Source of the DNA: an uncultured Pelagibacteraceae bacterium
Lineage (GTDB): Bacteria; Pseudomonadota; Alphaproteobacteria; Pelagibacterales; AG-422-B15
NCBI GenBank assembly: GCA_902619105.1
Contig: CACNCV010000001.1
Span: 82,706-146,705 of the forward strand
Length of the DNA: 64,000 nucleotides
Direction of reading: 5' to 3'
The position numbers and the translations under genes were made by a program. The notes beneath the pieces were generated by a model. That model ran no database searches. It saw only the letters and a program-made list of their open reading frames with translations, and was not told where the DNA came from. How positions within the stretch are numbered: the stretch's first letter is position 1; each line of letters begins with the position of its first letter. Shown here piece by piece: positions 2,220 through 54,403 of this stretch.

Positions 2220-3236
2220 ATGAAAGCAATTGTTTGTAAAGAATTTGGCCCTCCAAGCTCGCTTGTTTATGAGGATGTTGAATTACCTGAACTTAAAAAA
2301 AGTCAAATTCAGATAGATGTGCATTCTGCTGGAGTCAATTTTCCAGACACTTTAATTATTCAAGATAAATATCAAGTTAAACCCCCTCTTCCTTTTTCAC
2401 CAGGCGGTGAAATCTCAGGAGTCATTAGTGCGACAGGTGAAAGCGTTTCTGATTGGAAGGTTGGTGATGAGGTCGTTGCTATGATAGGCTTTGGTGGTTT
2501 TAGGGAACAAGTAATAACGAGTCCATCCAATATATTTCGAAAACCAAGTAGTATGGATTTTACCACCGCCTCTTGTTTTACATTAACTTACGGCACATCA
2601 CACTACGCTCTTAAAAATCGCGGTCAACTTAAGGAGGGTGAAAATTTACTTGTCCTAGGGGCTGCAGGTGGTGTTGGTATATCAGCTGTTGAAATTGGAA
2701 AAGCAATGGGTGCCAGAGTTATTGCCGGTGCATCTTCTGATGAAAAACTAGAAGTATGCAAAGAGTATGGAGCTGACGAAGTTATTAATTATGGAAAGTA
2801 TGATTTAACCAATAGAGATCATGTGAAAGAATTTAGAGCAGAAATTTCAAAAGCAACAGGTGGTAAAGGACCAGATGTAATCTATGACCCAGTTGGAGCA
2901 GATTTCACTGAGCCCGCTTTACGAAGCATTGCATGGAATGGACGCTTCTTAGTTATAGGTTGGGCGGCTGGTTATATTCCAAAAATACCAATGAATTTGT
3001 ATTTAATTAAAGGTTGTTCCGCTGTTGGTGTATTTTGGGGTCAATTTACAGCTTTAGAACCACAGGAGCATCTTGCCAACATGAACCAACTTACTGGTTG
3101 GTATGAAGAGGGAAAATTAAAAGCCCCAGTAACTGAAGTATTGCCGCTTGAAAAGGGTCAACAGGCTTTGGAGACAATTCTAGCCCGTAAGGCTACTGGA
3201 AAAATAGCACTAACAACATCTTTTTATAAATCATAG
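2220..3236 (+). CDS. NADPH:quinone oxidoreductase family (zeta-crystallin-like MDR)
   Basis: GVNFPD, PFSPGGE and LVLGAAGGVG nucleotide-binding motifs; no zinc-ligand Cys cluster. Confidence 0.9.
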   Translation: MKAIVCKEFGPPSSLVYEDVELPELKKSQIQIDVHSAGVNFPDTLIIQDKYQVKPPLPFSPGGEISGVISATGESVSDWKVGDEVVAMIGFGGFREQVITSPSNIFRKPSSMDFTTASCFTLTYGTSHYALKNRGQLKEGENLLVLGAAGGVGISAVEIGKAMGARVIAGASSDEKLEVCKEYGADEVINYGKYDLTNRDHVKEFRAEISKATGGKGPDVIYDPVGADFTEPALRSIAWNGRFLVIGWAAGYIPKIPMNLYLIKGCSAVGVFWGQFTALEPQEHLANMNQLTGWYEEGKLKAPVTEVLPLEKGQQALETILARKATGKIALTTSFYKS

Positions 3237-15867: not shown

Positions 15868-16497
15868 ATGTTTAAAAATATTATTATCTCACTATCTTTA
15901 CTGCTAATGTCAATTTCTTTTAGTAATGCCACAGAACTTAACGAACAAGTTTTTTATAATGGCGAAATAAAGAACGCTTATAATCAAAATGATCTTCCTA
16001 TATTACCTGGTAATTGGAAAGTATATGATTTAGAAAAATCTGGTAGTGTTCCATCAGGAAATTTCTATGTATATGCAACTTTAGTTCCTGAAGAAGTCGG
16101 CCCTACCGATAATGCATTTAATTTTGATGGAATTAATTATGCAGTCTTGGGTTCAAAATCTGAAGAGACTTCATATAGAAAATCATTCTATGCTTGTGAT
16201 GCAGGATGGATTACTGATGCTGATGTGACAACCTCAAATATTGACTCCAGAGGCTCTGGAAATTTTGAAGAAACATGCTCAGTGATCGGTGAAATTAACC
16301 CTTTTTATACTTTTTTTTATACAGATTGTGACGAAATCTGTGTAGAAGTAAATTTTACATTACATAGACAAAACTACAGTATAAGTGATGGTGATTTTGC
16401 ATCAGCATCTGATCAAATTTTTAAAGCAATTAGAAATACTGTAAATGGTCAGGGGTCAAGTGACCTTAGTCAAATTTTGTCAAATTATAAATCCTAA
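15868..16497 (+). CDS. Hypothetical secreted protein (acidic, four Cys)
   Basis: 209-aa ORF with a clear signal peptide, filling the htpG-acnA gap. No family recognised. Confidence 0.7.
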   Translation: MFKNIIISLSLLLMSISFSNATELNEQVFYNGEIKNAYNQNDLPILPGNWKVYDLEKSGSVPSGNFYVYATLVPEEVGPTDNAFNFDGINYAVLGSKSEETSYRKSFYACDAGWITDADVTTSNIDSRGSGNFEETCSVIGEINPFYTFFYTDCDEICVEVNFTLHRQNYSISDGDFASASDQIFKAIRNTVNGQGSSDLSQILSNYKS

Positions 16498-35832: not shown

Positions 35833-36849
35833 ATGAATTTTAACATTGCTATAGTGGGTGCCACAGGAAATGTCGGAAGAGAAATGTTAAATATTCTCTC
35901 TGAAAAAAAATATGATGTGTCAAAAATATTTCCTGTAGCTTCTAGTAGAAGTGAAGGCATGGAAATTGAATTTGGGGAGGATAAACTAATTGTAGAATCT
36001 ATTGAAAAGTTTGATCCTTCAAAAGTAGAATTGGCACTCTTCTCTGCAGGAGCTAGTGCCTCAAAGGAATGGGCACCAAAGTTTGCAGAAAAAAACTGTA
36101 TTGTTATAGATAACTCTAGTCAATTTAGAATGGAAGAAGATATTCCTTTGGTCGTGCCTGAGGTTAACCCAAGTGATCTAAATAATTATAAAAAAAGAAA
36201 TATAATTGCTAACCCAAACTGCTCAACAATTCAATTGGTGGTTGCCTTAAAACCATTGCACGAAATTTCAAAAATAAAAAAAGTTATTGTATCAACTTAT
36301 CAATCTGTTTCGGGTGCAGGTAAGGCTGGTATGGACGAGTTGTTTGAGCAAACAAAAAATATGTTCTCTGATGATATTAAAGATAATGTTAAGTTTACAA
36401 AACCAATTGCCTTTAATGTCATACCTCATATTGATAAATTCATGGATGATGGATACACAAAAGAAGAATTAAAAATGAGACAAGAAACTCATAAAATTTT
36501 AAGTAGTGAGATCAGCTTTAGCGCTACATGTGTTCGCGTTCCTGTATTTATTGGTCACTCTGAAGCTGTAAATATTGAGTTTGAAAACAAAATTTCAGTA
36601 GAAGAAGCACGTGAAGCTATTAAAAATGCTCCTGGGTGCACGCTACTTGATGAAAGAGCTGATGGAGGTTATGTAACTCCAAAAGAGTGTGCTGGAAATG
36701 ATGACACTTACGTATCGCGAATTCGAGAGGATACGTCTACAAAAAATGGATTATCTATTTGGGTAGTTTCTGATAATTTAAGGAAAGGTGCTGCTTTAAA
36801 TACAATCCAAATCGCTGAAATGCTAATTGAGGAACATTTATCTAAATGA
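35833..36849 (+). CDS. asd: Aspartate-semialdehyde dehydrogenase
   Basis: GATGNVG, IANPNCST, TYQSVSGAG and DNLRKGAALN motifs. Confidence 0.97.
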   Translation: MNFNIAIVGATGNVGREMLNILSEKKYDVSKIFPVASSRSEGMEIEFGEDKLIVESIEKFDPSKVELALFSAGASASKEWAPKFAEKNCIVIDNSSQFRMEEDIPLVVPEVNPSDLNNYKKRNIIANPNCSTIQLVVALKPLHEISKIKKVIVSTYQSVSGAGKAGMDELFEQTKNMFSDDIKDNVKFTKPIAFNVIPHIDKFMDDGYTKEELKMRQETHKILSSEISFSATCVRVPVFIGHSEAVNIEFENKISVEEAREAIKNAPGCTLLDERADGGYVTPKECAGNDDTYVSRIREDTSTKNGLSIWVVSDNLRKGAALNTIQIAEMLIEEHLSK

Positions 36850-38804
36850 GACAAGATGTAAGAAAACCAAGAAGAAGCGTACTTTATGTTCCTGGATCTA
36901 ATCCAAAAGCATTAAAAAAAAGTAGTACTCTTGATGTAGATGCAATTATTTACGACTTAGAAGACTCAGTAGCTGCAAATGCCAGAAATGATGCACGCAC
37001 AGCAATTATCGAAATTATAAATTCTGGTGTAAACAAAAATAAGGAACAGGTGATAAGAGTAAATGCTTTGGATACTGATGATGGTAAAATAGATATTAAG
37101 GTCTTGGACAAATGTAATCCCGATGCAATATTAATTCCTAAAGTAAATGAAGCTAATGATGTTAAAGCTTTTGAAAAATATCTTAAAAATAAAGAAATTA
37201 AAATTTGGGTTATGATGGAAACAGCTTTATCCATTGTAAACGCGTATGATATCGCAAAATCATCAAAATACTTAAAATGTTTTGTAATGGGAACTAATGA
37301 CTTGTCTGCAGAGTTGGGTATAGAGGAAGAACTAAAAAGAACTGCATTAGTCACAAGTTTTGAGAAATGTATGATGGCAACAAAAGCCTACAAATTATCA
37401 CTACTTGATGGAGTTTTTAATGACATCAGAGATGCTAATGGCTTTGAAGAAGAGTGCATCTATAGTCATGGTCTCGGATTTGATGGTAAAACCTTAATAC
37501 ACCCCGGACAAATACAAATATGCAATAAAATATTTACCCCTACGGCTGAACAACTAGACAAAGCAAAACGAATTGTCGCAGCCTTTGAGGATGCAAGAAA
37601 AAAGGACCCAAATGTTGGAGTAATTACGTTTGAAGGCAGTCAGATAGAGGAATTACACGTAAATCATGCAAAACGAATTATAGAAGCAGAATTGCTTGTT
37701 TCAAAAGTTACAGAACTAGATCAATCGGAAGTTATACAAACTTCTTCAAGTAAATATAAAATTGGTAACTTTTTTGAAAATTTTAAGCTAGGACAAAAAA
37801 TAATACACGCAACTCCACGGACAATAACATATGGAGATTGTGCACTTTATACAGCTTTATACGGTTCAAGGTACGCCCTGCACTGCTCAGATGAGTTTGC
37901 AAAAAAACTCTCATTAGAAAAATCACCAATTGACGATTTTCTTTTATTTAACATAGCTTTTGGTAAAACTGTCCCAGATATCTCTTTAAATGCAATTGCC
38001 AATTTAGGTTACGCAGAGTGTAAGTTTTTAAAGCCAGCTTATCCAGGAGATACAATTAGTTCAACTTCAGAAGTGATTGGCATTAAAGAGAATTCAAGTG
38101 GAGAAAATGGAGTAGTCTATGTCCACTCCGTAGGTACTAACCAGCATGACGAACCAGTTATTGATTATAAAAGATGGGTTATGGTTAGAAAAAAAAATAG
38201 AAACCTAAATAAAGCGGAACCGTCTATACCGGAATTAAATAAAGAGCTTACAAGTGAGGAGGTTGTAGAAATTGCAAAAAAATATGATTTTGATTGTACA
38301 GGATATGATTATAAAGCCTCTGGCTCTGATCTTTGTTATGAGGATTATTCTATTAACGAAAAAATAAATCATATTGATGGTATGACAGTTGAAGAGGCTG
38401 AACATATGATGGCAACAAAATTATACCAGAACAATGCAAAAGTTCACTTTAACCATTTTGTTGAAAAAGGTGGCAGGTTTGGAAAAAGAATTGTTTACGG
38501 TGGTCACGTTATAAGTTTAACAAGAGCTTTATCGTTTAATGGACTTTCAAATGCTTTTAAAATTATTGCGATCAACGGTGGAACCCACGCATCACCGTGT
38601 TTTGCGGGAACAACTGTTTTTGCTTGGAGTCTGATTTTAGACAAAGTCGAAGTATCAGAGTCATTAGGTGCTATTCGAGTCAGAACAAATGGAATTGGTG
38701 ATGCGCAGGCTTATCAGTTTCAACACCAAGATAGTAACAAGCGTTTTGATCCGTCCGTTTTGTTAAGTCTTGATTATTGGGCTTTAATTCCAAGAAAAAA
38801 ATAA
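36846..38804 (+). CDS. mcl2-mch: Fusion protein: N-terminal CitE/Mcl2-like (malyl-CoA thioesterase/lyase family) domain plus C-terminal Mch-like mesaconyl-C1-CoA hydratase (double hot-dog MaoC)
   Basis: N-domain (about aa 1-282): RRSVLYVPGSN, YDLEDSV, VIRVN, MMET, MGTNDL, GFDGKTLIHP. C-domain (about aa 305-652): GNFFENF, FGKTVPDISLNAIANLGYAE, YPGDT, ENSSG..GVVYV, HMMAT..YQN.AKVHF, VYGGHVIS..RALSFNGL. Confidence 0.85.
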   Translation: MRQDVRKPRRSVLYVPGSNPKALKKSSTLDVDAIIYDLEDSVAANARNDARTAIIEIINSGVNKNKEQVIRVNALDTDDGKIDIKVLDKCNPDAILIPKVNEANDVKAFEKYLKNKEIKIWVMMETALSIVNAYDIAKSSKYLKCFVMGTNDLSAELGIEEELKRTALVTSFEKCMMATKAYKLSLLDGVFNDIRDANGFEEECIYSHGLGFDGKTLIHPGQIQICNKIFTPTAEQLDKAKRIVAAFEDARKKDPNVGVITFEGSQIEELHVNHAKRIIEAELLVSKVTELDQSEVIQTSSSKYKIGNFFENFKLGQKIIHATPRTITYGDCALYTALYGSRYALHCSDEFAKKLSLEKSPIDDFLLFNIAFGKTVPDISLNAIANLGYAECKFLKPAYPGDTISSTSEVIGIKENSSGENGVVYVHSVGTNQHDEPVIDYKRWVMVRKKNRNLNKAEPSIPELNKELTSEEVVEIAKKYDFDCTGYDYKASGSDLCYEDYSINEKINHIDGMTVEEAEHMMATKLYQNNAKVHFNHFVEKGGRFGKRIVYGGHVISLTRALSFNGLSNAFKIIAINGGTHASPCFAGTTVFAWSLILDKVEVSESLGAIRVRTNGIGDAQAYQFQHQDSNKRFDPSVLLSLDYWALIPRKK

Positions 38805-38852: not shown

Positions 38853-39230
38853 ATGAGCAGTCCCTTATCACCACATTTGCAAGTTTATAGATGGCAAATT
38901 ACATCAATACTATCAATTCTTCATAGAATAACGGGTATAGTTTCATCATTAGGTGTAATCATATTAATAATATTTTTATATTCAATTAGCGCTGGCGAAG
39001 AAACTTTTCAATTTATAATTTCCTTATCAGAAAATATTTTTATAAGAACAATATTAATAGGTCTTACGTTTTCATATTTGTTTTATTTTTTAAATTGCTT
39101 GAGGCACTTATTCTGGGACGTTGGCATTGGGCTTGAATTAAATACTGCCAAATTGACAGGTTGGATTACAATTTTGTTTACTGTTTTGCTCACTGTTCTA
39201 TTTTGGGTTTTAATTATGATTGGATATTAA
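38853..39230 (+). CDS. sdhC: Succinate dehydrogenase cytochrome b556 subunit
   Basis: PLSPHLQVY, SILHRITG and LRHLFWD.G.G motifs. Confidence 0.95.
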   Translation: MSSPLSPHLQVYRWQITSILSILHRITGIVSSLGVIILIIFLYSISAGEETFQFIISLSENIFIRTILIGLTFSYLFYFLNCLRHLFWDVGIGLELNTAKLTGWITILFTVLLTVLFWVLIMIGY

Positions 39231-39564
39231 CTCTATGTCTGCCAAAAATACTTGGAAACTTCATCGATGGAGCACGATTTTACTGCTACCACTCATTGTT
39301 TATTTATTTATAAAAATAATACACCTTTCCACTCTGCCATATCAATTAATTTTGAGTGAATTAAGCAACTTATGGGGTGTAGGGTTTATATTGATTTTCA
39401 CGGTCTTAGGATTAATTCATATGAATACTGGTGTGCATGAAATCCTTGATGATTACGTTCACTCTGATGTGGTTAAAAAGATATTAAATGTAATAATTTC
39501 AATATTTTTTTTACTAATACTAGTTTTTGTTTGTTTGTCTCTACTACTAATTTTTATAGGTTAA
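39220..39564 (+). CDS. sdhD: Succinate dehydrogenase membrane anchor subunit
   Basis: Three TM helices and H...G...ILDDYVH. The start may be ATG at 39235. Confidence 0.92.
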
Positions 39565-39568
39565 CTTA

Positions 39569-41344
39569 ATGAATTACGAAATTGAATATCACGATTACGA
39601 TGTAGTTGTTGTCGGTGCTGGTGGATCTGGTTTGAGAGCGACAGTAGGCGCTGTTGAGAATGGTTACAAGACTGCTTGTATTTCAAAAGTATTCCCAACT
39701 AGAAGTCATACGGTTGCAGCACAGGGAGGCATTTCTGCTGCACTTGGAAACATGGGTGATGATGATTGGAGATGGCACATGTATGATACTGTGAAAGGCT
39801 CTGATTGGCTTGGGGATCAGGATGCAATTGAGTATTTGTGCAAAAATGCACCAAAAGCTGTTTTAGAATTAGAGAACTATGGAGTTCCATTTAGTCGAAC
39901 AGAGGATGGAAAAATTTATCAAAGAGCCTTTGGAGGGATGACCAAAAATTATGGCGAAGGTACTGCACAAAGAACATGTGCTGCTGCTGATCGAACTGGC
40001 CATGCAATAATTCATACTTTATACGGGCAATCATTAAAACATGACGTTGACTATTATATTGAATATTTTGTTTTGGACTTATTAATGGTTGAGGGTGAAT
40101 GCAGGGGTGTTGTTGCATGGTGTTTAGAGGACGGTAAATTACATGTATTTAACTCTAAACAAACAATACTAGCGTCTGGTGGATATGGCCGTGTTTATTT
40201 TTCTGCAACTTCAGCTCACACCTGCACAGGTGATGGTAACGCAATGGTTTTAAGAGCTGGATTACCTCTTCAAGATATGGAATTTGTTCAATTTCACCCA
40301 ACAGGTATTTATGGCGTCGGTTGTCTTATAACAGAGGGCGCAAGAGGAGAAGGCGGTTATTTAGTAAACAGTGAAGGCGAACGTTTCATGGAGAGATATG
40401 CACCATCAGCGAAAGACTTAGCTTCAAGAGATGTTGTGTCTCGTTCTATAACAAAAGAAATTTTAGAGGGTAGAGGCGTTGGCAAAGATAAGGATCATGC
40501 TTATCTACATCTTGATCACATAGACTCAGATATATTGGAAGAAAGATTGCCTGGTATTTCAGAGTCCGCAAAAGTTTTCGCAGGAGTTGATGTAACCAAA
40601 GAGCCAATTCCAATTATACCTACAGTTCATTATAATATGGGTGGAATTCCAACAAATTTTCATGGAGAAGTAATGAACCTCGAAAAAGGAAATGAAACAG
40701 TCGTACAGGGTTTGATGGCAGTTGGTGAAGCTGCTTGTGTGAGTGTTCATGGTGCAAATAGACTCGGATCAAATTCTCTAATTGATTTAGTGGTTTTTGG
40801 CAAAGCAGCAGCAGATAGAATAAATGACACGGTAAATAAAGATGAACCCAATAAGGAAATTCCAAGCCATGTAATCGATGAAGTCATTGCAAGGTTTGAT
40901 AGTACACGATCTTCTGATGGGGATATTTCAACTTCAGAATTAAGGTCTCAAATGCAGAGAGTTATGCAGAAACACTGCGCTGTTTTTAGAGATGATGAGA
41001 TTATGTCTGAAGGAAAAAAACTTATCGAAGAAACTTGGTTAAACTCAGAAAATATTAAAATTAAAGACAAATCACTAATATGGAATACTGATTTGTTAGA
41101 AACACTTGAATATAAAAACCTAATTGCACAAGCTGTAGTTACAATGAACTCCGCACTAAATAGAAAAGAAAGTAGAGGGGCTCACGCTCGAGAAGACTAT
41201 AAGGAAAGAGATGATAAAAATTGGATGAAGCATACAATGTCATGGCTGAATGATAAGAGTTGTGAACTGGATTATAGATCAGTTCACGAATACACATTAT
41301 CAAATGAAGTTAAATATATTGCGCCAAAGGCCAGAGTTTATTAA
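39569..41344 (+). CDS. sdhA: Succinate dehydrogenase flavoprotein
   Basis: [30 protein letters not shown] and [11 protein letters not shown] motifs. Confidence 0.98.
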
Positions 41345-42120
41345 TGGTCCAGTTTAATCTTCCCGACAATTCTAAATTAATAGACGGTGATTATTACAAG
41401 TCTGAAAAAAGCAATGGGAATATTAAAAAATTCAAAATTTACCGTTGGTCTCCCGACGATGAAAAAAACCCAAGGATGGACACTTATGAAGTTGATCTAG
41501 ACGATTGTGGTCCGATGGTATTGGATGCAGTTATGAAAATCAAAAGTGAAATTGATACTTCATTAACCTTTAGACGATCATGTCGCGAGGGCATATGTGG
41601 TTCTTGTGCAATGAATATTGATGGGACAAACACACTCGCTTGTACCAAAGCAATTAGTGATATGAAAGGTGACATAAAAATTTATCCTCTGCCTCACATG
41701 CCAGTTATAAAAGACTTGGTTACAAATTTAAAAACACTCTATAAGCAATTAAAGTCCATCAAGCCATGGCTTATGAATAAGAAACAAAACGCAAACGATA
41801 CTGAAAATATTCAATCAAGAAATGACCGTGAAAAATTAGATGGCTTGTATGAATGCATCTTGTGTGCATGTTGTTCAACTTCATGCCCAAGTTATTGGTG
41901 GAACAGTGACAAATATTTGGGCCCTGCGGTCCTGCTTCAGTCATATCGCTGGTTACAAGATAGCCGTGATGAGGAAAGAAAAGAGAGATTAAAAGAATTA
42001 GATGATACGTTTAAAGTTTACAGATGCCACACAATAATGAACTGCACTCAAGCTTGTCCAAAAGGTCTCAACCCCGCAAAGGCTATTGCTGGTATCAAAC
42101 AAATGATAGCACAGCAGTAA
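41344..42120 (+). CDS. sdhB: Succinate dehydrogenase iron-sulfur subunit
   Basis: [22 protein letters not shown] and [12 protein letters not shown] motifs. Confidence 0.98.
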
Positions 42121-42619: not shown

Positions 42620-43627
42620 ATGAAAAATTCTTATACTAAACCTAATCTCGATACTAAGTATTTTGATGATTTATTCAACTCACTACCTTCAATGGAAAAT
42701 AAAACAGTTGCTATAACAGGCACAACTTCTGGGCTTGGATTTTATGCTGCTGAGTCAGTAGCTAAGCTTGGTGCTAAAGTCCTACTATTGAATCGTCCTT
42801 CAACTAGAGCTGAGTCATCTTTAAATTTACTTAGACAAAATTGTGCAAATGGAAATTTCCACAGAGTAGATTGTGATCTACAAAGTTTTGACTCGGTAAA
42901 AACTGCATTTTCAAAAATTAATGAAATATGTAGCGATGGCCTTGATGTATTATGCAATAATGCGGGCGTAATGGCTCTTAAAGATAAAGCCACAATCGAC
43001 GGCTTTGATGTACAAATGCAAACTAATCACTTGTCCCATTTTCTTCTAACTAAATTATGTATGCCCTTACTAGAAAAAGCATCACAATTAAGGGATGAAG
43101 CAAGAATAGTTAATCATTCTAGTATTGCACGCTTTCAAACAAAAAGACTTAAAGAAAAGTTTCTTGAAAAAAAAGGCGGCAACTTAGGTGGAGATGGAGG
43201 TAATTTGATGTTTGGTGGTGGCCGATGGGAGCGTTATGCCCAGACAAAGCTTGCTAATGCTGCATTCACTGCATGTTTGCATGAAAAGTTGCAAAAAAAC
43301 AATTCAAAAATTAGAGCGATGGTTGCTCATCCGGGTCTTGCAGAAAGTGATTTACAATCTACAACAGTAGAGGATGGCGGAATGGGCAGTTTTTTTACAA
43401 AATATTTAATGAAGTTTGGGCAGTCTGAAAAAGATGGAACTTTGGGTCTCCTAAGATGTATTGCAGATCCTAAAATTAATTCAGGCTCAATGGTAGGGCC
43501 TGGTTTAAAAGGAATGAAAGGTAAAGCAAAATCTTTTTCACTTGAGTCTTTTTATGATAATCCTAAAGTCAAGAGCATGCTGTGGGCCAAAAGCTGTGAG
43601 GCTATAGGCGAAAGTTTTGAAATTTAG
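42620..43627 (+). CDS. Classical SDR oxidoreductase, retinol dehydrogenase/WWOX-like
   Basis: ITGTTSGLG, CNNAGVM, DGFDVQMQTNHLSHFLLT, YAQTK (YxxxK) and HPG motifs. Confidence 0.88.
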   Translation: MKNSYTKPNLDTKYFDDLFNSLPSMENKTVAITGTTSGLGFYAAESVAKLGAKVLLLNRPSTRAESSLNLLRQNCANGNFHRVDCDLQSFDSVKTAFSKINEICSDGLDVLCNNAGVMALKDKATIDGFDVQMQTNHLSHFLLTKLCMPLLEKASQLRDEARIVNHSSIARFQTKRLKEKFLEKKGGNLGGDGGNLMFGGGRWERYAQTKLANAAFTACLHEKLQKNNSKIRAMVAHPGLAESDLQSTTVEDGGMGSFFTKYLMKFGQSEKDGTLGLLRCIADPKINSGSMVGPGLKGMKGKAKSFSLESFYDNPKVKSMLWAKSCEAIGESFEI

Positions 43628-43636
43628 GTAATTTAA

Positions 43637-46154
<2,518 letters not shown>

Positions 46155-47312
46155 ATGAATATACACGAACATCAAGCAAAGGAATTATTTGACGGTTATG
46201 ATATACCTGTGTCCATAGGAAGTGTTGCATATGAAAAAAGTCAGATAAATGAAGCAGTGGGAAAAGTTAAGGGTCCAATTTGGGTTGTTAAAGCACAAAT
46301 TCATGCAGGTGGCAGAGGTAAAGGTGGAGGCGTTAAAGTAGTTTCTTCAAAAGAAGAAGCTGTAAATGAGGCTGAAAAAATGTTTGGTATGAATTTAATA
46401 ACGCCTCAAACAGGCCCAGCAGGAAAAGAAGTAAAACGTATCTACATTGAAAATGGGTCGGATATTAAAAAAGAATTATACCTTTCTTGTTTATTAGACA
46501 GAGCGACAAGCAAAGTTGCCTTTATTGTATCTAAGATGGGAGGTATGGACATTGAAGCAGTTGCAAAAGATACCCCAGAAAATATAACAACAGTTCAAAT
46601 AGAGCCTTCAATAGGTGTTACTGAAAATGATGTAAATACAATTAGTAAAGCTTTTGAACTCAAAAAAGATCTTGAGGGCCAACTTTCTGATCTTATAAAA
46701 AATATGTATAAATTTTTTTTAGAAAAAGATGCTAGTCTTGTTGAAGTTAATCCTTTGATTATAACTGAGACTGGCAAACTATTGTGTCTCGATGCTAAAG
46801 TTAATTTTGATGATAATGCTTTATACCGCCATCCAGAAATTGAGGAATTAAGGGATGAGAATGAAGAGGATGAATATGAAAGAGAGGCATCAAAATATGA
46901 TCTCGCATATATAAAATTGGATGGGAATATAGGCTGTATGGTCAATGGCGCAGGCTTGGCAATGGCTAGCTTAGATATTATTAAAATGTATGGCGGTGAG
47001 CCCGCCAACTTTCTTGATGTTGGTGGTGGAGCTTCTAAAGAAAAGGTTTCGAGTGCATTTAAAATTATTCTTTCTGATAAAGGTGTAAAAGGCATCTTAG
47101 TTAATATCTTTGGCGGGATCATGAGATGTGACATCATTGCTGAAGGAATTGTTGCTGCTGCAAAAGAATTAGAAATTTCTGTACCGCTTGTAGTTAGACT
47201 TGAAGGCACAAATGTTGATGAAGGTAAGAAAATTTTAGATAATTCAAGTATCGAAATTATTTCTGCCAATGATTTAGATGATGCAGCAAAAAAAATAGTC
47301 AAGCTAGTTTAA
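46155..47312 (+). CDS. sucC: Succinyl-CoA synthetase beta subunit
   Basis: [23 protein letters not shown] and NGAGLAM motifs. Confidence 0.97.
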
Positions 47313-48193
47313 TGTCAGTAATAGTTAATAAAGATACAAAAGTTATTTGTCAGGGTTTCACTGGATCACAAGGTACCTTTCATTCAGAACAGGCAATTAA
47401 ATACGGCACTAACATGGTTGGTGGAGTTACTCCTAAAAAAGGAGGAACTGAGCACTTAGGGTTACCAGTATTTGATACAGTAAAAGAAGCTAAAGATAAA
47501 ACGGAAGCAAATGCCACTGTAATTTACGTTCCTCCCCCATTTGCCGCAAAAGCAATTTTAGAAGCAATAGATAGTGAGATGGAGCTAATAGTTTGTATAA
47601 CAGAGGGAATTCCTGTTATGGATATGCTAGAGGTCAAAGATAAGTTAAGATCTTCCAAATCACGTCTCATTGGCCCCAATTGTCCGGGAGTCATAACTCC
47701 TGATGAGTGTAAGATTGGTATAATGCCAGCGCATATTCATCAAAAGGGAAACGTAGGAATTGTATCTAGGTCTGGAACACTAACTTATGAAGCAGTTTAT
47801 CAAACAACAGTGGAAGGTCTTGGACAATCCACCTGTATTGGAATAGGGGGCGATCCAGTGAATGGAACAAACTTTATTGATTGTTTGGAACTTTTCTTAT
47901 CTGATCCGGAAACTGAATCGATAATCATGATTGGTGAAATTGGTGGTTCAGCTGAGGAAGAAGCAGCTGAATTTTTGAGAAAAGAAAAGATAAAAAAGCC
48001 AACCGTTGGATTTATTGCAGGAACTTCAGCCCCTCCAGGAAGAAGAATGGGACACGCTGGAGCAATTGTATCTGGAGGGAAAGGTGGAGCAGAAGATAAA
48101 ATTGAAGCTATGAAGAGTGCTGGGATTCAAATTTCAAATTCTCCAGCAGCTTTAGGATCAACTTTACTTGAGGTATTAAAGAATCAAAACTAA
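47312..48193 (+). CDS. sucD: Succinyl-CoA synthetase alpha subunit
   Basis: [25 protein letters not shown] and RMGHAGA motifs. Confidence 0.97.
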
Positions 48194-48207
48194 AATTAAG
48201 CTGCTTA

Positions 48208-51168
48208 ATGACAAAGTCATCCATAAACGACATTTTTGATAAAACATCTTTCCTGCACGGTGCAAACGCAGTTTATATCGAACAAATGTTCGAAAGATTT
48301 CAAAATAATCCCGCTGATATACCAGATGATTGGAGAATTTTTTTTTCTGGCATTACAGATAACTTAAATCAACAAAATATTCTTCGTGCTAGTTGGGCAT
48401 CTCAAAATGTAGAAACCAAAAATGAAGAAGATACTTTAGAAAATATTAATGATAGTGAAATCAAAATAGAGTCCCAAACATTAAATAAAGATAACATTGT
48501 TACGAGTGAAGCATTTAAAGAACAGGTTTTTGACTCAATAAGGGCAATAAGACTTATCAGAGCTTATAGAGTTAATGGTCATCTTGCATCAAATCTGGAT
48601 CCACTAAATTTAAAAGAAATTAAAACATATTCTGAACTCGATTATAGAAATTATGGTTTCAAAGAAAATGACCTTGATAAAGAAATTTTTATTGACGGTA
48701 GTCTTGGTCTAAACTTTGCTAAACTCAGAAATATAATTGACATACTTAAGGAAACTTATTGCGGATCTATAGGTGTTGAATTTGTTCATATTCAAGATGC
48801 TGATCAAAAGCAATGGGTTCAAGAAAGAATAGAGGAAGTTAGAAATAAAACACAGTTTACCTCAAACGGTAAGAAAGCAATATTCAAACGTTTGCTTGAA
48901 GCTGAAATGTTCGAGCAATTCCTTGATAAAAAGTTTATAGGTACCAAAAGGTTTGGGCTCGTTGGCAGTGAGTCGACTGTCCCAGGCATCGAGCAAATAA
49001 TTAAACAAAGCTGCTTAGCAGGAGTCGAGGACATATACATAGGAACCGCACATCGTGGGAGATTAACCCTTCTTTCATCTGTTATGGAAGTTCCCTTGCG
49101 ATCAATTATGGCAAAATTTGAGGGTGGAGGAGAGGATCCCAATGAAGTTTTAGGATCCGGGGACGTGAAGTACCATTTAGGGATTTCAAGTGATAGAGAG
49201 TTTGATGATAAAAAAATTCATCTTTCCTTGACGCCAAATCCATCACATTTGGAGGCAGTGGATCCCGTAGTGATAGGAAAAGTTAGAGCTGAGCAAACAT
49301 TGCTTCAAGATAAAACAAACGACAGAGTAATAGGACTATTAATTCATGGCGATGCTGCTATGGCTGGGCAAGGTGTTGTTGCAGAAACTTTTGCGATGTC
49401 GCAATTACGGGGTTTTCGCACAGGAGGTACAATTCATTTTGTTATTAACAATCAAATAGGTTTCACCACAATGCCCCATTATGGTCGTTCAGCTCCATAC
49501 TGTACCGAAATAGCAAAAATTATACAGGCGCCAATATTTCATGTTAATGGAGATGATGTTGAAGCAGTCGTTCATGTATGTAGACTAGCAGTTGAATTTA
49601 GAAATAAATTTAAAACCGACGTTGTAGTAGATATGTTTTGTTATCGTCGATCTGGCCATAATGAAATGGATTTACCAGAATTTACACAGCCACTAATGTA
49701 TCAAAAAATTAAATCTCACCCGTCTACTCTTAAAATTTATGAAAAAAAACTTATTGAAGAAGGTGTTTTAACTAATGACGATGTTGAAAATGAAAGATCA
49801 ATTTACGCCAGTAAATTGAATGAAGAGTTAAAATTTGCAAAGTCGTATAAGCCAAATAAAGCTGACTGGCTTGAAGGTTCATGGAAAGGTATAACGGTAG
49901 CGTCAATCGATGCAAGAAGAGGTAAAACAGCTATTACTGAAAATGAGCTATTAAAAATTGGGAAAGAAATACATACCATTCCAGAAAACTTTAACCCGCA
50001 TAGAAGAATAAAAAAAATTTATGATGATAGATTATCAAGTATACAAACAGGTAATGGAATTGACTGGGCAACTGCTGAGTCTCTTGCATTTGCTTCATTG
50101 TTATCAGAAGGTTATGGAGTAAGGCTTTCAGGTCAAGACTCGGGCAGAGGCACTTTTAGTCAAAGACATGCAGTTCTTTATGATCAAGTAAGTGAGAAAA
50201 GATTTGTACCATTGAGACATTTTAGAGAAAAACAAGGATTTTTTGAAATCATTGATAGTTTTTTATCTGAGTATGGTGTTTTGGGTTTCGAATATGGTTA
50301 TTCACAAGTTGATCCAAGAACTCTAGTGCTTTGGGAGGGTCAATTTGGTGACTTTGCAAACAATGCTCAGACAATAATTGACCAATTTATAACTACTGGC
50401 GAGAGAAAATGGTTAAGAATGTCAGGTCTGACATTGCTTTTGCCACACGGCCATGAAGGCCAGGGGCCTGAACACACAAGTGGAAGATTAGAGAGATTTT
50501 TACAAATGTGTGCCGAGGACAACATTCAAGTTGTTAATTGTACTTCACCCGCAAATTATTTTCATGCTCTTAGAAGACAGCTTCATAGAGATTTCAGAAA
50601 ACCACTAGTTATCATGACACCTAAATCTACATTAAGGCACAAAAAAAATACATCTAGCATTGAAGAATTTACAAATGGATCAACCTTTCATCGAATTTTA
50701 AGAAAAGAACTGACTTCAGAACAAAAATCAAAAGTAAATAGATTGCTTTTATGTTCTGGAAAAATATATTTTGAGCTTGATGATCATCTTGAAAAATTAA
50801 AAAAAGATAATGTACACATTTTAAGATTTGATCAATTGTATCCATTTCCTTATGAAGTTTTAAAAGAGGAATTAATACAGTTTCCAAATGCTGAAATATT
50901 TTGGGTTCAAGAAGAGCCATCAAATATGGGAGCATTCAGATTTGTTAAACATCGAATTGAGTCAGTATTACAGGGAATAACAGGAAAATATAAAGAATTA
51001 CTATTTATAGGTAGAAAGGCATCCGCATCTCCTGCTACTGGTATAGCTAATCGTCATGCAGAAAACCAAGCCAATATTATAAAGCTAGCTTTAGAGAGCG
51101 ATATAAATGAAATTAAAAAACACAAGGATGGCGTAACATTAGTTAAATTTAAACTGCCGATTGAATAA
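48208..51168 (+). CDS. sucA: 2-oxoglutarate dehydrogenase E1
   Basis: AHRGR, GDVKYHLG, NPSHLE, HGDAAMAGQG and WEGQFGDF motifs. Confidence 0.97.
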   Translation: MTKSSINDIFDKTSFLHGANAVYIEQMFERFQNNPADIPDDWRIFFSGITDNLNQQNILRASWASQNVETKNEEDTLENINDSEIKIESQTLNKDNIVTSEAFKEQVFDSIRAIRLIRAYRVNGHLASNLDPLNLKEIKTYSELDYRNYGFKENDLDKEIFIDGSLGLNFAKLRNIIDILKETYCGSIGVEFVHIQDADQKQWVQERIEEVRNKTQFTSNGKKAIFKRLLEAEMFEQFLDKKFIGTKRFGLVGSESTVPGIEQIIKQSCLAGVEDIYIGTAHRGRLTLLSSVMEVPLRSIMAKFEGGGEDPNEVLGSGDVKYHLGISSDREFDDKKIHLSLTPNPSHLEAVDPVVIGKVRAEQTLLQDKTNDRVIGLLIHGDAAMAGQGVVAETFAMSQLRGFRTGGTIHFVINNQIGFTTMPHYGRSAPYCTEIAKIIQAPIFHVNGDDVEAVVHVCRLAVEFRNKFKTDVVVDMFCYRRSGHNEMDLPEFTQPLMYQKIKSHPSTLKIYEKKLIEEGVLTNDDVENERSIYASKLNEELKFAKSYKPNKADWLEGSWKGITVASIDARRGKTAITENELLKIGKEIHTIPENFNPHRRIKKIYDDRLSSIQTGNGIDWATAESLAFASLLSEGYGVRLSGQDSGRGTFSQRHAVLYDQVSEKRFVPLRHFREKQGFFEIIDSFLSEYGVLGFEYGYSQVDPRTLVLWEGQFGDFANNAQTIIDQFITTGERKWLRMSGLTLLLPHGHEGQGPEHTSGRLERFLQMCAEDNIQVVNCTSPANYFHALRRQLHRDFRKPLVIMTPKSTLRHKKNTSSIEEFTNGSTFHRILRKELTSEQKSKVNRLLLCSGKIYFELDDHLEKLKKDNVHILRFDQLYPFPYEVLKEELIQFPNAEIFWVQEEPSNMGAFRFVKHRIESVLQGITGKYKELLFIGRKASASPATGIANRHAENQANIIKLALESDINEIKKHKDGVTLVKFKLPIE

Positions 51169-51194
51169 TAATCTTAAAGTGTTAAATATTAAAT

Positions 51195-52433
51195 ATGTCT
51201 GTTAAAATCAAAGTTCCTTCTCTCGGAGAAAGTGTTGTAGAGGCAACGGTTGCAAAATGGTATAAGAATGAAGGTGACTATGTATCCGTCGATGAACCAT
51301 TGCTTGAGCTTGAAACAGATAAAGTAACTCTTGAAGTTCCTTCGCCATCAAATGGCTGTATACAAAAAATCAATGTAGAAGAAGGTTCTACTGTTGAAGT
51401 TGGTGCAATCTTAGGGTCTATTGATGAAAATGCATCTATAGACCAAAAAGTTAAACAGTCAGAACCAGTAAATGAAAAATCAGTTACGACTCCAGAAAAA
51501 ATTATTCCTGAGGAAGTAGAGTCTCCACCAAAAGAAGAGATGCCCATCCAAATTGATAATTTAAATAATCAAAAATTATCCCCTGCTGTAAGAAAAATTG
51601 CTGCTGAAAAGAATATAAATATTAATACTGTAACCTCCTCAAGAGAGGATGGTAGAATTACTAAATCTGACGTCATAAATTATCAAAATATAGAAAAACA
51701 AGAAAATACTCCTCAAACAATTAGACAAACCGATAAAAGAGAAGAACGAGTGCCCATGTCGCGTTTAAGGCAAACCATAGCGAAACGTCTAAAGGATGCT
51801 CAGAATAATGCTGCCATGCTTACAACATTTAATGAGGTTGATATGAGTGAGCTTATAAAGACACGCAATGATCATAAATCAGAATTTGAAAAAAAGTATG
51901 GCGTGAAATTAGGCTTCATGTCTTTTTTCGTGAAAGCATGTATAACTGCGCTGAGAGATATTCCTGAAGTAAATGCTGAAATTGAAAACAACGACGTCAT
52001 TTATAAAAACTTTTACAATATTGGTGTTGCTGTTGGAACTGATCAAGGCCTCGTCGTACCCGTTGTTAAAGACGCCGATAAAAAATCTCTTGTTGAAGTA
52101 GAAAAAGAAATCTATCAACTGGGACAGAAAGCTCGTTCTGGCCAATTAAGTATTGAAGATATGCAGGGTGGCACATTTACAATATCCAATGGTGGTGTTT
52201 ATGGATCTTTAATGTCAACTCCAATATTAAATCCACCTCAATCAGGAATATTGGGAATGCATAAAATAGAAGAAAGACCCATAGCTATTGAAGGTGAAAT
52301 AACAATTAGACCTATGATGTATCTTGCCCTTTCATACGATCATAGAATAGTAGACGGTAAAGGAGCCGTAACTTTTTTAGTCAGAGTTAAAGAGGGTCTA
52401 GAGGATCCAAGTAGATTATTATTAGGAGTTTAA
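51195..52433 (+). CDS. sucB: Dihydrolipoamide succinyltransferase E2
   Basis: Lipoyl ETDKV, E3-binding SPAVRK and catalytic DHRIVDG motifs. Confidence 0.97.
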
Positions 52434-52434
52434 T

Positions 52435-53826
52435 TTGGAACAATTTGATATTACAGTGATTGGCAGCGGACCTGCTGGTTACGTTTGCGCAATTAGGGCA
52501 TCACAACTTGGATACAATGTTTGTTGTATCGAAAAGGGACAAACGCTTGGCGGTACCTGCTTAAATATTGGATGTATTCCCTCAAAATCTCTATTGCATT
52601 CTTCTCATTTATTTCATCAAGCTTCAGAACTTAATCAATTAGGCATTAATTTTGATAACGTATCGTTTGATCTAAATAAAATAATGAAATCTAAAAATGA
52701 AAGCGTCGAGTCACTTACAAATGGTATCGATTTCCTTTTTAAAAAAAATAAAGTTACAAGAAAATTGGGATTTGCGAAGTTCATTGACAATGAGCAAATT
52801 GAGATTTTAAGTGGCGATAATTCCGAGGTTATTAAATCATTTAAAACAATTATTGCTACAGGTTCAGAAGTTGTTTCACCTGAGGGAGTGGTCATTGATG
52901 AAATTGATATCTTATCATCCACTGGAGCTTTAAGTTTATCGTCTGTTCCAAAGCACTTAATGGTTATTGGCGCAGGTTACATTGGTTTGGAAATGGGATC
53001 TGTTTGGTCAAGACTAGGGTCAAAGGTAACTGTTATTGAATATGCAGACCGAATACTCCCTGGAATGGACCAAGAAATTTCTGATGCTTTTCAAAAAATA
53101 CTCATTAAACAAGGATTTGATTTTAAACTTTCTACTGCTCTAAGAAAGGTAAATAAAAGCAGCGGTTCGCTTTCTGTTTCGGTTGAAAACAATGGTCAAA
53201 CTCTTGATATGGATTGTGACAAAGTTTTAATATCGACTGGTCGAAAACCTTACACTTTTGGTCTGAACTTAGAGAAGATAGGGGTAAAAACGAATGATAA
53301 AGGCTTTATTGAGACTAATCAGCATTTTAATACTTCTATTGAAAATATTTATGCAATCGGTGATTGTAAAATAGGACCAATGCTTGCCCATAAAGCTTCG
53401 GAAGAAGGAACTGCTGTAGCTGAGATTATTGACGGTCAGGCTGGACACGTTAACTATAATACAATTCCATCAGTTATTTATACTGCCCCAGAAGTTGCAT
53501 CAGTTGGAAAAACAGAGGAAGAATTAAAGAGAAACAACATCACATACAAAATAGGTAAATTTCCGTTTTCAGCAAATGGTAAAGCTAAAGTGATGAATGA
53601 AACAAGTGGGTTTGTGAAGATCTTATCTGATAAAAATACAGATGAAGTATTAGGTGTTCATATCATTGGAGCAGACGCCGGCAACCTTATTGGCGAACTC
53701 ACAATTGCAATGGAATTTGGAGCATCAGCTGAGGATATCGCAAGAACGTGTCACGCACATCCAACTCTAACAGAATCAATAAAAGAAGCTGCGTTAAACG
53801 TGGATAATCAAGCTATTCATATTTAG
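52435..53826 (+). CDS. lpdA: Dihydrolipoamide dehydrogenase E3
   Basis: GSGPAGY, GGTCLNIGCIPSK and HAHPTLTE motifs. Confidence 0.97.
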   Translation: MEQFDITVIGSGPAGYVCAIRASQLGYNVCCIEKGQTLGGTCLNIGCIPSKSLLHSSHLFHQASELNQLGINFDNVSFDLNKIMKSKNESVESLTNGIDFLFKKNKVTRKLGFAKFIDNEQIEILSGDNSEVIKSFKTIIATGSEVVSPEGVVIDEIDILSSTGALSLSSVPKHLMVIGAGYIGLEMGSVWSRLGSKVTVIEYADRILPGMDQEISDAFQKILIKQGFDFKLSTALRKVNKSSGSLSVSVENNGQTLDMDCDKVLISTGRKPYTFGLNLEKIGVKTNDKGFIETNQHFNTSIENIYAIGDCKIGPMLAHKASEEGTAVAEIIDGQAGHVNYNTIPSVIYTAPEVASVGKTEEELKRNNITYKIGKFPFSANGKAKVMNETSGFVKILSDKNTDEVLGVHIIGADAGNLIGELTIAMEFGASAEDIARTCHAHPTLTESIKEAALNVDNQAIHI

Positions 53827-54403
53827 CTTTCTTTTTTGTTATTAGTAAAGTCATCAAGTACAGCCAGACTGCTACAACTACATGATAAAAATGCCAGCTA
53901 AGATTTGGTTCAAACAGCTGAACCTGTCTAATAATAAAATTAACCAGTATTATTGAAAAAATGAAGCTTGATACGAAACGAGAAGAAATTTTTTCTCTTG
54001 GTATCAAAAAAGAAAAAATTATTCCAAGAACAAGCCACATAACAGCATACATAATGATTAAACTCTTTGCTTGAAAGAAAATATATATACTTATCAATGC
54101 CATTATCAGTGCAAAAATTAAAATTATCTTTTCATTAAGGAACTGACTTTTTTTAATGACGTCTATCGTGATGAGTGGTACTCCGAATAGAAGTGATAGA
54201 GCTGTGAACAATTGGTGTGAAGACTTCAGCTCGGTATGCATGTTCAAGCCAAACCTAAGGGTTGCTAAAAAAGCTGCGACTGCCAGTACTAAAACTCCAG
54301 CAGCAGCAAAGTTTAGCTTATGTTGCAAAAAGACTCTTATTGAGTATGCACCAGCTATTACAATCAGTATTTCAGAAAGAGCAAAATGAGCTGGAGGTGT
54401 CAT
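53813..54403 (-). CDS. Hypothetical multi-pass membrane protein
   Basis: About seven hydrophobic segments and a C-terminal WHFYH motif. Start is coupled to the upstream stop (TAATG). Confidence 0.75.
   Translation of the reverse strand: MTPPAHFALSEILIVIAGAYSIRVFLQHKLNFAAAGVLVLAVAAFLATLRFGLNMHTELKSSHQLFTALSLLFGVPLITIDVIKKSQFLNEKIILIFALIMALISIYIFFQAKSLIIMYAVMWLVLGIIFSFLIPREKISSRFVSSFIFSIILVNFIIRQVQLFEPNLSWHFYHVVVAVWLYLMTLLITKKKAKYE

Follow-up and report, generated by a model that had tools for sequence, protein, structure and literature searches.

We analysed a 64-kb stretch of DNA (64,000 nucleotides; hereafter the window) from an uncultured Pelagibacteraceae bacterium of the SAR11 group (contig CACNCV010000001.1, positions 82,706 to 146,705 of the forward strand), in which one gene encodes a CitE-like domain followed by a domain of the mesaconyl-C1-coenzyme A (CoA) hydratase (Mch) type. 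The evidence suggests, with a probability that we put at about 0.68, that this gene is a genuine, SAR11-specific merger of two old alphaproteobacterial neighbours, mcl2 and mch, and that its product would combine an Mcl2-type thioesterase with Mch, with no lyase step. Both domains come from known, characterised families, and what is new is the fused architecture rather than the catalytic type.

A single reading frame fuses two domains in SAR11

The fused mcl2-mch gene occupies positions 36846..38804 of the forward strand as a single open reading frame (ORF) of 652 amino acids (aa) plus stop, according to both the ORF list and the sequence; the window has ~34% GC. The start codon (ATG, 36846) shares bases with the TGA of asd as ATGA (36846-36849), while the start of sdhC at 38853 lies 48 nucleotides (nt) 3' of its own stop codon. 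Pfam matched HpcH_HpaI to residues 10-220 over the full profile (8e-43), MaoC_dehydratas to residues 315-426 and MC_hydratase (PF19315) to residues 305-604. The stretch originally quoted as the linker, LLVSKVTELDQSEVIQTSSSKYK, corresponds to residues 283-305 (nt ~37692-37760) and contains no Met. The original prediction had described one uninterrupted 652-aa ORF with a CitE domain, a Met-free linker and a double hot-dog domain, its start overlapping the asd stop; the ORF list, the Pfam matches, the sequence itself and 38 SAR11 copies all agree with this description.

These copies come from a scan in which each GTDB species was represented by a single genome; the SAR11 loci belong to separate assemblies of single-amplified genomes (SAGs) and metagenome-assembled genomes (MAGs). 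The scan found 39 Pelagibacteraceae/Pelagibacterales loci with 77-100% identity to the window protein. One uninterrupted frame of 652-657 aa was present in 38/38 complete SAR11 loci, the 39th being cut by a contig end, and the linker varied among them by in-frame substitutions and small indels only, with zero stops. For the Pelagibacteraceae SAG AG-909-G09, identity was 100% in the best tblastn segment and ~99% over the first 285 residues in BLASTP. Four fused clusters in the protein database hold >1,400 sequences. Among 1.84 billion cluster representatives, a single same-order fusion cluster came up, that of SAR11. Within the window's own clade, the ratio of nonsynonymous to synonymous substitution rates (dN/dS) was 0.03 for the N-terminal domain (N-domain), 0.04 for the C-terminal domain (C-domain) and 0.28 for the linker, indicating strong purifying selection on both domains and a relaxed linker.

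The 38 uninterrupted SAR11 copies therefore show that the fusion is not an assembly artefact. Although errors do create junction-spanning ORF fragments in other organisms, as in the error-ridden long-read contigs that yielded P0156 and P0283, the false joining of two genes during sequencing or assembly, or a decaying pseudogene, has a negligible chance of explaining 38 complete copies at 77-100% identity, >1,400 sequences in four fused clusters and dN/dS of 0.03-0.04 in both domains. Taken together, these results indicate a functional protein of two domains held together by a tether under weak constraint, neither an assembly artefact nor a pseudogene, and that the fused architecture is restricted to SAR11.

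Three candidates for fused or split relatives were rejected. P0156 and P0283, which have 47-50% identity across the junction and would have counted as divergent fusions, come from long-read contigs of 67% GC with sdhA in pieces. Likewise, the 355-aa stand-alone MaoC family dehydratase P0434 (MFL2901178.1), a member of a fused cluster, does not represent a secondary split, since the 652-aa frame is open and the annotation begins at a linker Met. In the long-read metagenome contigs of 67% GC (L082 and L083), sdhA and mcl2/mch are broken and chimeric ORFs mimic divergent fusions. At locus L088 (2110-4068; GCA_045567295.1, JBJLDE010000014.1), the source of MFL2901178.1, only the Mch half was called, and ~890 nt that are open, conserved and CitE-like in coding were left unannotated. 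Other pipelines have named the fused protein for one domain, the Joint Genome Institute (JGI) name being "2-methylfumaryl-CoA hydratase". A literature search on the fusion, and on SAR11 together with mesaconyl-CoA, malyl-CoA, ethylmalonyl-CoA or propionyl-CoA plus glyoxylate, returned no description of the protein or of such a pathway. The original prediction would have been refuted had all relatives been split or had the fusion been widespread and already characterised; not all relatives are split, and the fusion is indeed widespread, yet only within SAR11, with no describing paper found.

Origin of the fusion from a separate gene pair

The closest stand-alone homologue of the N-domain, P0139 (56-57% identity), occurs in marine contigs of low GC (33%) whose genes match those of the window for 20 kb in the collinear order dapF, ffh, rpsP, rimM, trmD, rplS, leuCDB, asd, CitE-like, Mch, sdhCDAB, smr, aldehyde dehydrogenase, mdh, sucCD, sucA. 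In this split SAR11-like lineage (L002, L086), a CitE-like gene of 287 aa is followed by a stop codon plus a 4-nt gap and then by an Mch gene of 355 aa, and the linker of the fusion corresponds to that stop and gap together with the N-terminal tail of Mch. The other strong matches among the 1.84 billion representatives were all stand-alone proteins, either Mch of ~355 aa (45-58% identity) or CitE-like proteins of ~290 aa (40-56%). The two genes stand side by side but separate, and ordered alike, in Rhodospirillales, Hyphomicrobiales, Magnetospirillaceae, Rhizomicrobium, Thalassospiraceae and one Rhodobacteraceae MAG (L050), and such pairs outside SAR11 usually have asd upstream, or sdhCDAB downstream, or both. 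The complete order mcl2-mch-sdhCDAB is kept in Rhodospirillales, Hyphomicrobiales, Magnetospirillaceae, Thalassospiraceae and Rhodobacteraceae (the same MAG), in line with the earlier statement that mch and mcl2 lie near sdh in rhodobacters.

Given that the same pair is adjacent but separate across the Alphaproteobacteria, these gene orders mark it as ancestral there; and given that a collinear, deeper SAR11-like lineage keeps a stop codon and 4 nt between the two genes, they place the merger within the SAR11 lineage. The original impression that loss of a stop between two genes was an unlikely source of the ORF has thus to be revised, for an evolutionary merger of this kind is what the split lineage points to, though no artefact. 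The overlap with asd is common to the fused and the split SAR11 lineages. By contrast, asd lies upstream at a distance of 1.3-3.8 kb from the pair in other Alphaproteobacteria (1.3-2.6 kb in most loci), and the ATGA coupling is therefore a product of SAR11 compaction. The interval between asd and mcl2 in other Alphaproteobacteria contains pyridoxal-kinase-like and response-regulator-like genes, as judged from N-terminal sequences, and offers no pathway clue; a PfkB/pyridoxal-kinase match was found at the same position in L082 and L083.

A fusion of the reverse order was also encountered. P0144 (725 aa; L004, 163-2340) consists of an N-terminal Mch and a C-terminal Mcl1-like CitE domain that has the lid Asp discussed below and is 34% identical to R. 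sphaeroides Mcl1 (4L9Y). Like the SAR11 protein it places Mch and a CitE-like domain in one polypeptide; it differs in the opposite order, in its Mcl1-like half with the Asp lid and in being a single occurrence, on one contig of 55% GC from an SRA assembly. P0144 seems, from its sequence, to be a hydratase-lyase fusion of independent origin, which would join consecutive steps.

The N-terminal domain resembles the malyl-CoA thioesterase Mcl2

In alignments with characterised CitE-type enzymes, E39, D40, R71, E125 and D152 of the N-domain match E44, D45, R76, E141 and D168 of the R. sphaeroides lyase (MCLR). These five residues are invariant or nearly so in 89 aligned sequences, with R71, E125 and D152 invariant in 89/89 as well as in an alignment of 20 fused homologues (A1). 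The residue at the lid position is Glu268, within GSQIEELHV, and it aligns with an Asp in 5ugr, 4l9y, 5vxc, 3qll and 6aq4. Glu occupies this position in 84/84 close homologues, including the synteny-defined genes of other Alphaproteobacteria, whereas Asp does so in 5/5 characterised PDB lyases (MclA, Mcl1, CLYBL, RipC and Rv2498c). The C-terminal lid Asp (Asp299 in MCLR, Asp318 in MCLC) has been described as conserved across the superfamily and the malate synthases (Zarzycki and Kerfeld, PMC3832036), the sole exception being a cluster around the R. sphaeroides malyl-CoA thioesterase (Mcl2), which has Glu (PMC3832036).

The motif GFDGKTLIHP at residues 211-220 is the commonest form in the Mcl2-type clade (42/89 aligned sequences, the rest differing by conservative changes), in which it reads G(F/M)DGK(T/S)LIHP; the corresponding forms are G(F/M)xGKWAIHP in Mcl1/MclA, GFTGKQVIHP in CLYBL and GFSAKAAIHP in RipC. 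Thus the original judgement that this motif is closer to Mcl2 than to Mcl1 holds. A synteny-defined gene, that of the Rhodobacteraceae MAG, retrieves proteins of Jannaschia, Tropicimonas, Roseovarius and Paracoccaceae that are named (3S)-malyl-CoA thioesterase. In a neighbour-joining (NJ) tree, the N-domain falls within the Glu clade together with the proteins of that name from Jannaschia, Roseovarius and Paracoccaceae, apart from CLYBL, Mcl1, MclA, RipC and Rv2498c. We therefore assign the N-domain, from residue signatures and gene order, to the Mcl2-type, malyl-CoA thioesterase clade. Its likeness to R. sphaeroides Mcl2 (EC 3.1.2.30) extends to a CitE-like fold of ~285 aa, the Mg2+ and Arg residues, the lid Glu and the motif, and Mcl2-type genes lie upstream of mch and sdh in Alphaproteobacteria as the N-domain does here. 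By contrast with R. sphaeroides Mcl2, the N-domain forms half of a 652-aa protein. Erb et al. are said to have shown in 2010 that R. sphaeroides Mcl2 hydrolyses (3S)-malyl-CoA and has no lyase activity.

Comparison with lyases of the superfamily separates the N-domain from them further. Mcl1 (4L9Y) and MclA (5UGR), which are paralogues of Mcl2, share the superfamily, the Mg2+ ligands and the catalytic Arg, but they possess the lid Asp, Mcl-specific insertion loops and the GKWAIHP motif, none of which occurs in the fusion. Neither of the two marks of an Mcl-type lyase, the lid Asp and the Mcl-specific insertion loop that contacts the lid, was detected in the N-domain, and because it lacks the insertion it aligns to Mcl1/MclA (5UGR, 4L9Y) in two stretches, as against one stretch with CLYBL and RipC. 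Human CLYBL (5VXC) is likewise a short CitE-like protein without the Mcl insertions, and its single-stretch alignment reached 7e-34 with the whole fusion and 1.5e-34 with the N-domain. CLYBL is a citramalyl-CoA lyase and malyl-CoA thioesterase that serves metabolite repair of side products of the tricarboxylic acid (TCA) cycle (bioRxiv 10.1101/2024.09.25.614871). It differs from the N-domain in keeping the lid Asp and lyase activity, in sharing only ~30% identity and in being unfused to a hydratase. The CitE model TIGR01588 scored 193.8 bits against a cut-off of 443.4, and the NCBIfam haloarchaeal lyase model 50 bits against 500. Pfam/NCBIfam scans of the ~30 larger window ORFs, which left the smaller ones aside, revealed neither citD nor citF.

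The C-terminal domain aligns with mesaconyl-C1-CoA hydratases

The C-domain aligned end to end with C. aurantiacus Mch (PDB 4E3E, residues 2-351; 8e-129, 56% identity) and with M. extorquens MeaC (PDB 8HGN, residues 4-348; 2e-116, 53% identity), values that may be read against the ~60% (60-62%) identity of characterised Mch enzymes to one another (PMC10164722). Asn529 and His534 align with Asn226 and His231 of M. extorquens MeaC (MeMeaC), its catalytic pair, while F372, S380, N386, R443, Y551 and G552 match F71, S79, N85, R142, Y248 and G249, which contact substrate or malate; malate was bound in the MeMeaC active site (PMC10164722). All eight of these residues are invariant among the 20 fused homologues of A1. 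On these alignments, membership of the C-domain in the Mch family is established. It thus resembles Mch/MeaC (EC 4.2.1.148; Caur_0173) in having a full double hot-dog, the Asn/His pair and the malate contacts, the difference being that it sits behind a CitE-like domain without a start codon of its own. Stand-alone Mch has been described as dimers (PMC5592240) or as a trimer (PMC10164722). Mch also interconverts fumaryl-CoA and malyl-CoA: the Haloarcula enzyme does so with a kcat/Km of 3.8 as compared with 254 s-1 mM-1 for beta-methylmalyl-CoA, and the malyl-CoA dehydratase activity of Chloroflexus Mch amounts to ~5% of its main activity (PMC5592240).

Proposed function and alternative explanations

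Judging from the two families, the N-domain would catalyse Mg2+-dependent hydrolysis of (3S)-malyl-CoA to malate and CoA, and would do so with no C-C cleavage because Glu268 replaces the lyase Asp that protonates the enolate. The C-domain would reversibly hydrate mesaconyl-C1-CoA to erythro-beta-methylmalyl-CoA via Asn529 and His534, and would probably also interconvert fumaryl-CoA and (S)-malyl-CoA, more slowly, as other Mch enzymes do. The fusion would hold these two separate catalysts at a ratio of 1:1, possibly within one oligomer, and may act on C4/C5 dicarboxylyl-CoA esters on the margin of the TCA cycle and the glyoxylate node.

Several points weigh against this assignment and explain why we hold it with only the confidence given above. 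The catalytic roles of both domains in SAR11 are predicted from sequence, and the thioesterase assignment in particular depends on a single signature residue and on R. sphaeroides Mcl2 as the only characterised enzyme. The N-domain is ~36-41% identical to Rhodobacteraceae proteins named Mcl2, and the NJ tree that groups them has no bootstrap support and includes the PDB references as aligned fragments only. AlphaFold2 run on the full fusion with the 20-sequence alignment A1 gave an unusable model, with a mean predicted local distance difference test score (pLDDT) of 44.8 and a predicted template modelling score (pTM) of 0.34. Pfam/NCBIfam scans of the ~30 larger ORFs recognised none of ccr, ecm, mcd, epi, mcl1, mct and meh, nor any CoA-transferase gene, in the 64-kb window, where a PIG3-family reductase at 2220-3236 reached 102 bits against a Ccr cut-off of 378. 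Finally, Mcl2 acts in the ethylmalonyl-CoA pathway after a separate lyase, Mcl1 (PMC2948502). With the canonical order Mch, then Mcl1, then Mcl2, the fused steps are non-consecutive and the selective reason for joining them is unexplained. The original prediction had offered either a link between non-consecutive steps or a lyase; the former fits better than the latter.

One refinement of the merger of an Mcl2-type thioesterase with Mch, not opposed to it, would remove the last difficulty, and we regard it as a tentative possibility with perhaps a minority share of the probability. Here the two domains would form a module for salvage or repair whose two steps have (S)-malyl-CoA in common: Mch would hydrate fumaryl-CoA or mesaconyl-CoA and the Mcl2-type domain would hydrolyse the product at once, thereby clearing stray dicarboxylyl-CoA esters made by promiscuous SucCD and 2-oxoglutarate dehydrogenase. 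With (S)-malyl-CoA shared, the fused steps would therefore be consecutive, which would explain why mch pairs with mcl2, and not with a lyase gene, beside sdh. The malyl-CoA dehydratase activity of Chloroflexus Mch (PMC5592240) and the malate binding by MeMeaC (PMC10164722) noted above are consistent with such a module, and malyl-CoA is a side product of succinyl-CoA ligase and of the 2-oxoglutarate dehydrogenase complex that CLYBL hydrolyses (bioRxiv 10.1101/2024.09.25.614871). The gene also lies inside a TCA supercluster, adjoining sdhCDAB and near mdh, sucCD and the genes taken as sucAB and lpd; across the alphaproteobacterial loci examined, the partner of mcl2 is mch, with no recognisable gene for an Mcl1-type lyase next to them; and the pair has been kept in a streamlined genome. 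On the other hand, R. sphaeroides Mcl2 is said not to hydrolyse beta-methylmalyl-CoA, the side activity invoked is 1-5% of the main one, and the proximity to sdh is ancestral and perhaps functionally meaningless. Moreover, fumaryl-CoA has never been demonstrated as a cellular metabolite (PMC5592240).

The same idea can be stated more generally, as a Rosetta-stone reading of the fusion, which we consider a shade less probable still. Mch and Mcl2 would then be a functional pair outside the ethylmalonyl-CoA pathway that converts an enoyl-dicarboxylyl-CoA via (S)-malyl-CoA to free malate or methylmalate and CoA. Such a pair may constitute a CoA-ester repair or salvage route on the TCA cycle, conserved beside sdh across the Alphaproteobacteria and obligatory in SAR11.

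Alternatively, the pair could serve a route for glyoxylate and propionyl-CoA, either the lower ethylmalonyl-CoA pathway or the second cycle of the 3-hydroxypropionate bi-cycle, together with a separately encoded Mcl1-type lyase; Mch would link beta-methylmalyl-CoA and mesaconyl-CoA, Mcl2 would free malate, and the fusion would merely fix co-expression. The domains are orthologous to the enzymes that do so in R. sphaeroides and M. extorquens, a methylmalonate-semialdehyde dehydrogenase that would make propionyl-CoA is encoded 5 kb downstream and lends mild support, and glyoxylate bypass/metabolism is conserved in SAR11 subclade Ia (PMC3448164). However, mcl1, ccr, ecm, mcd, mct and meh were not found in the window scans, and the literature search produced no report of such a pathway in SAR11. 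SAR11 relies on a glyoxylate shunt whose malate synthase is canonical, and it is not known to have the B12-dependent mutases that a full ethylmalonyl-CoA pathway needs, both of which count against this route; a literature search for an explicit statement that SAR11 has no B12-dependent enzymes found none. Unlike the host of R. sphaeroides Mcl2, SAR11 is presumably a host with the glyoxylate shunt and without the ethylmalonyl-CoA pathway. We hence rate this route as doubtful, somewhat below the two preceding possibilities.

The original prediction also raised the option that the N-domain is a beta-methylmalyl-CoA lyase, or lyase/thioesterase, fed directly by the fused Mch, giving a compact enzyme for mesaconate, acetate or glyoxylate assimilation. 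That fusions mostly join consecutive steps, that P0144 points to hydratase-lyase coupling in nature and that the relative CLYBL has both lyase and thioesterase activity would all fit this proposal. It is nevertheless contradicted by Glu268 in place of the lid Asp, the one substitution that sets the thioesterase clade apart from lyases and malate synthases, as well as by the absence of the Mcl-specific insertion loops, the grouping of the N-domain with Mcl2-named proteins and NCBIfam lyase scores far under their cut-offs, and we consider it improbable.

An itaconate/citramalate module, in which an itaconyl-CoA or mesaconyl-C4-CoA hydratase would be coupled to an (S)-citramalyl-CoA lyase, has even less in its favour. 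The precedent is Ich/RipB with Ccl/RipC of Yersinia and Pseudomonas, where a MaoC-type hydratase and a CitE-type enzyme act in consecutive steps on C5 dicarboxylyl-CoA esters, but these are separate proteins and Ccl has the Asp lid. Matches to both families exist below threshold: the NCBIfam model RipC_Ccl scored 157.3 bits (5e-46) against a cut-off of 375, and RipB_Ich, a family with one hot-dog of ~175 aa, scored 94.1 bits (9e-27) on the C-domain against 340, matching the first hot-dog only. Scores so far below the cut-offs, the 56% identity of the C-domain to a bona fide Mch, the inactivity on itaconyl-CoA of the single Mch tested (PMC5592240) and the lid Asp of RipC and CLYBL where the fusion has Glu make this module very improbable.

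Gene neighbourhood and other genes of the window

The features of the fusion and of its immediate neighbours are collected in Table 1. A scan of 32-43 kb for promoters and terminators returned counts at the level of shuffled sequence and no terminator between asd, the fusion and sdhC, which are probably co-transcribed.

Table 1. Coordinates in the window of the mcl2-mch fusion, its domains and predicted key residues, and adjacent genes
Feature	Position	Strand	Remarks
N-domain, residues 1-285	36846..37700	+	TIM barrel of the CitE-like kind with a C-terminal lid; putative (3S)-malyl-CoA thioesterase, Mcl2-type
Inter-domain linker, residues ~286-305	37701..37760	+	~20 aa, variable, in-frame indels among SAR11 clades
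C-domain, residues 306-652	37761..38801	+	Double hot-dog; predicted mesaconyl-C1-CoA hydratase / beta-methylmalyl-CoA dehydratase (Mch)
Glu268, lid position	37647..37649	+	Asp in all characterised CitE-type lyases
Arg71 (37056-58), Glu125 (37218-20), Asp152 (37299-301)	37056..37301	+	Catalytic Arg and ligands of Mg2+, conserved in the CitE superfamily
Asn529 and His534, predicted hydratase catalytic pair	38430..38447	+	Aligned with MeMeaC Asn226 and His231
asd, aspartate-semialdehyde dehydrogenase	35833..36849	+	Stop overlaps fusion start
sdhC, sdhD, sdhA, sdhB	38853..42120	+	Directly 3' of fusion, no terminator-like site between
CoA-acylating methylmalonate-semialdehyde dehydrogenase	43637..45130	+	TIGR01722, 677.7 bits against a cut-off of 448.5

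The fused gene stands in the middle of a TCA supercluster. Most genes of the TCA cycle fall within ~37 kb of the window; those identified by scans comprise acnA (16504-19185, reverse strand), sdhCDAB, and mdh and sucCD, the last two within the forward-strand block at 45192-53826. Size and position suggest that the three ORFs at 48208-53826 are sucA, sucB and lpd. In L084 and L086, which are collinear, families of 2-oxoglutarate dehydrogenase E1 were matched by the ORF that takes the place of sucA. The dehydrogenase between sdhB and mdh, ~5 kb 3' of the fusion, is a predicted source of propionyl-CoA or acetyl-CoA, and a 497-aa aldehyde dehydrogenase gene of the same length stands at the same position in a fused (L084) and a split (L086) SAR11 lineage.

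Between sdhB and this dehydrogenase, a short-chain dehydrogenase/reductase (SDR)-family oxidoreductase gene (42620-43627, forward strand) is present in the clade of the window and in that of 83% identity (L005, L018) but missing at that spot in the 78% clade (L032, L084) and the split lineage (L086), marking a clade-specific insertion or deletion in an otherwise collinear region. Farther away, positions 3267-9185 of the forward strand encode an autotransporter of 1972 aa, in which six Big_5 Ig-like repeats are combined with an autotransporter beta-domain at the C-terminus; no other gene of this stretch of a streamlined genome comes near it in size. Two ORFs, of 209 aa (15868-16497, forward strand) and 195 aa (53813-54403, reverse strand), matched nothing in Pfam or NCBIfam at the thresholds applied.

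Implications for SAR11 metabolism

SAR11 is the most abundant heterotroph of the ocean and has a genome pared down to essentials. It nevertheless keeps, joined in one chain within a TCA operon and strongly selected, two enzymes best known from the ethylmalonyl-CoA and 3-hydroxypropionate pathways. Should the remainder of these pathways indeed be missing from SAR11, the pair must have another job. One candidate is a B12-independent handling of propionyl-CoA and glyoxylate. The other is the clean-up of stray malyl-CoA and fumaryl-CoA arising from TCA enzymes, which, if true, would be a bacterial counterpart of the repair role lately proposed for human CLYBL. The fusion could also explain why mcl2 and mch, and not mcl1, neighbour one another throughout the Alphaproteobacteria.

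Because public names cover one half of the protein ("2-methylfumaryl-CoA hydratase" or "aldolase/citrate lyase family protein"), metabolic reconstructions of SAR11 probably mishandle this gene. At the same time, the fusion offers one protein, easy to express, for studying the part that Mcl2 and Mch play beyond the ethylmalonyl-CoA pathway.

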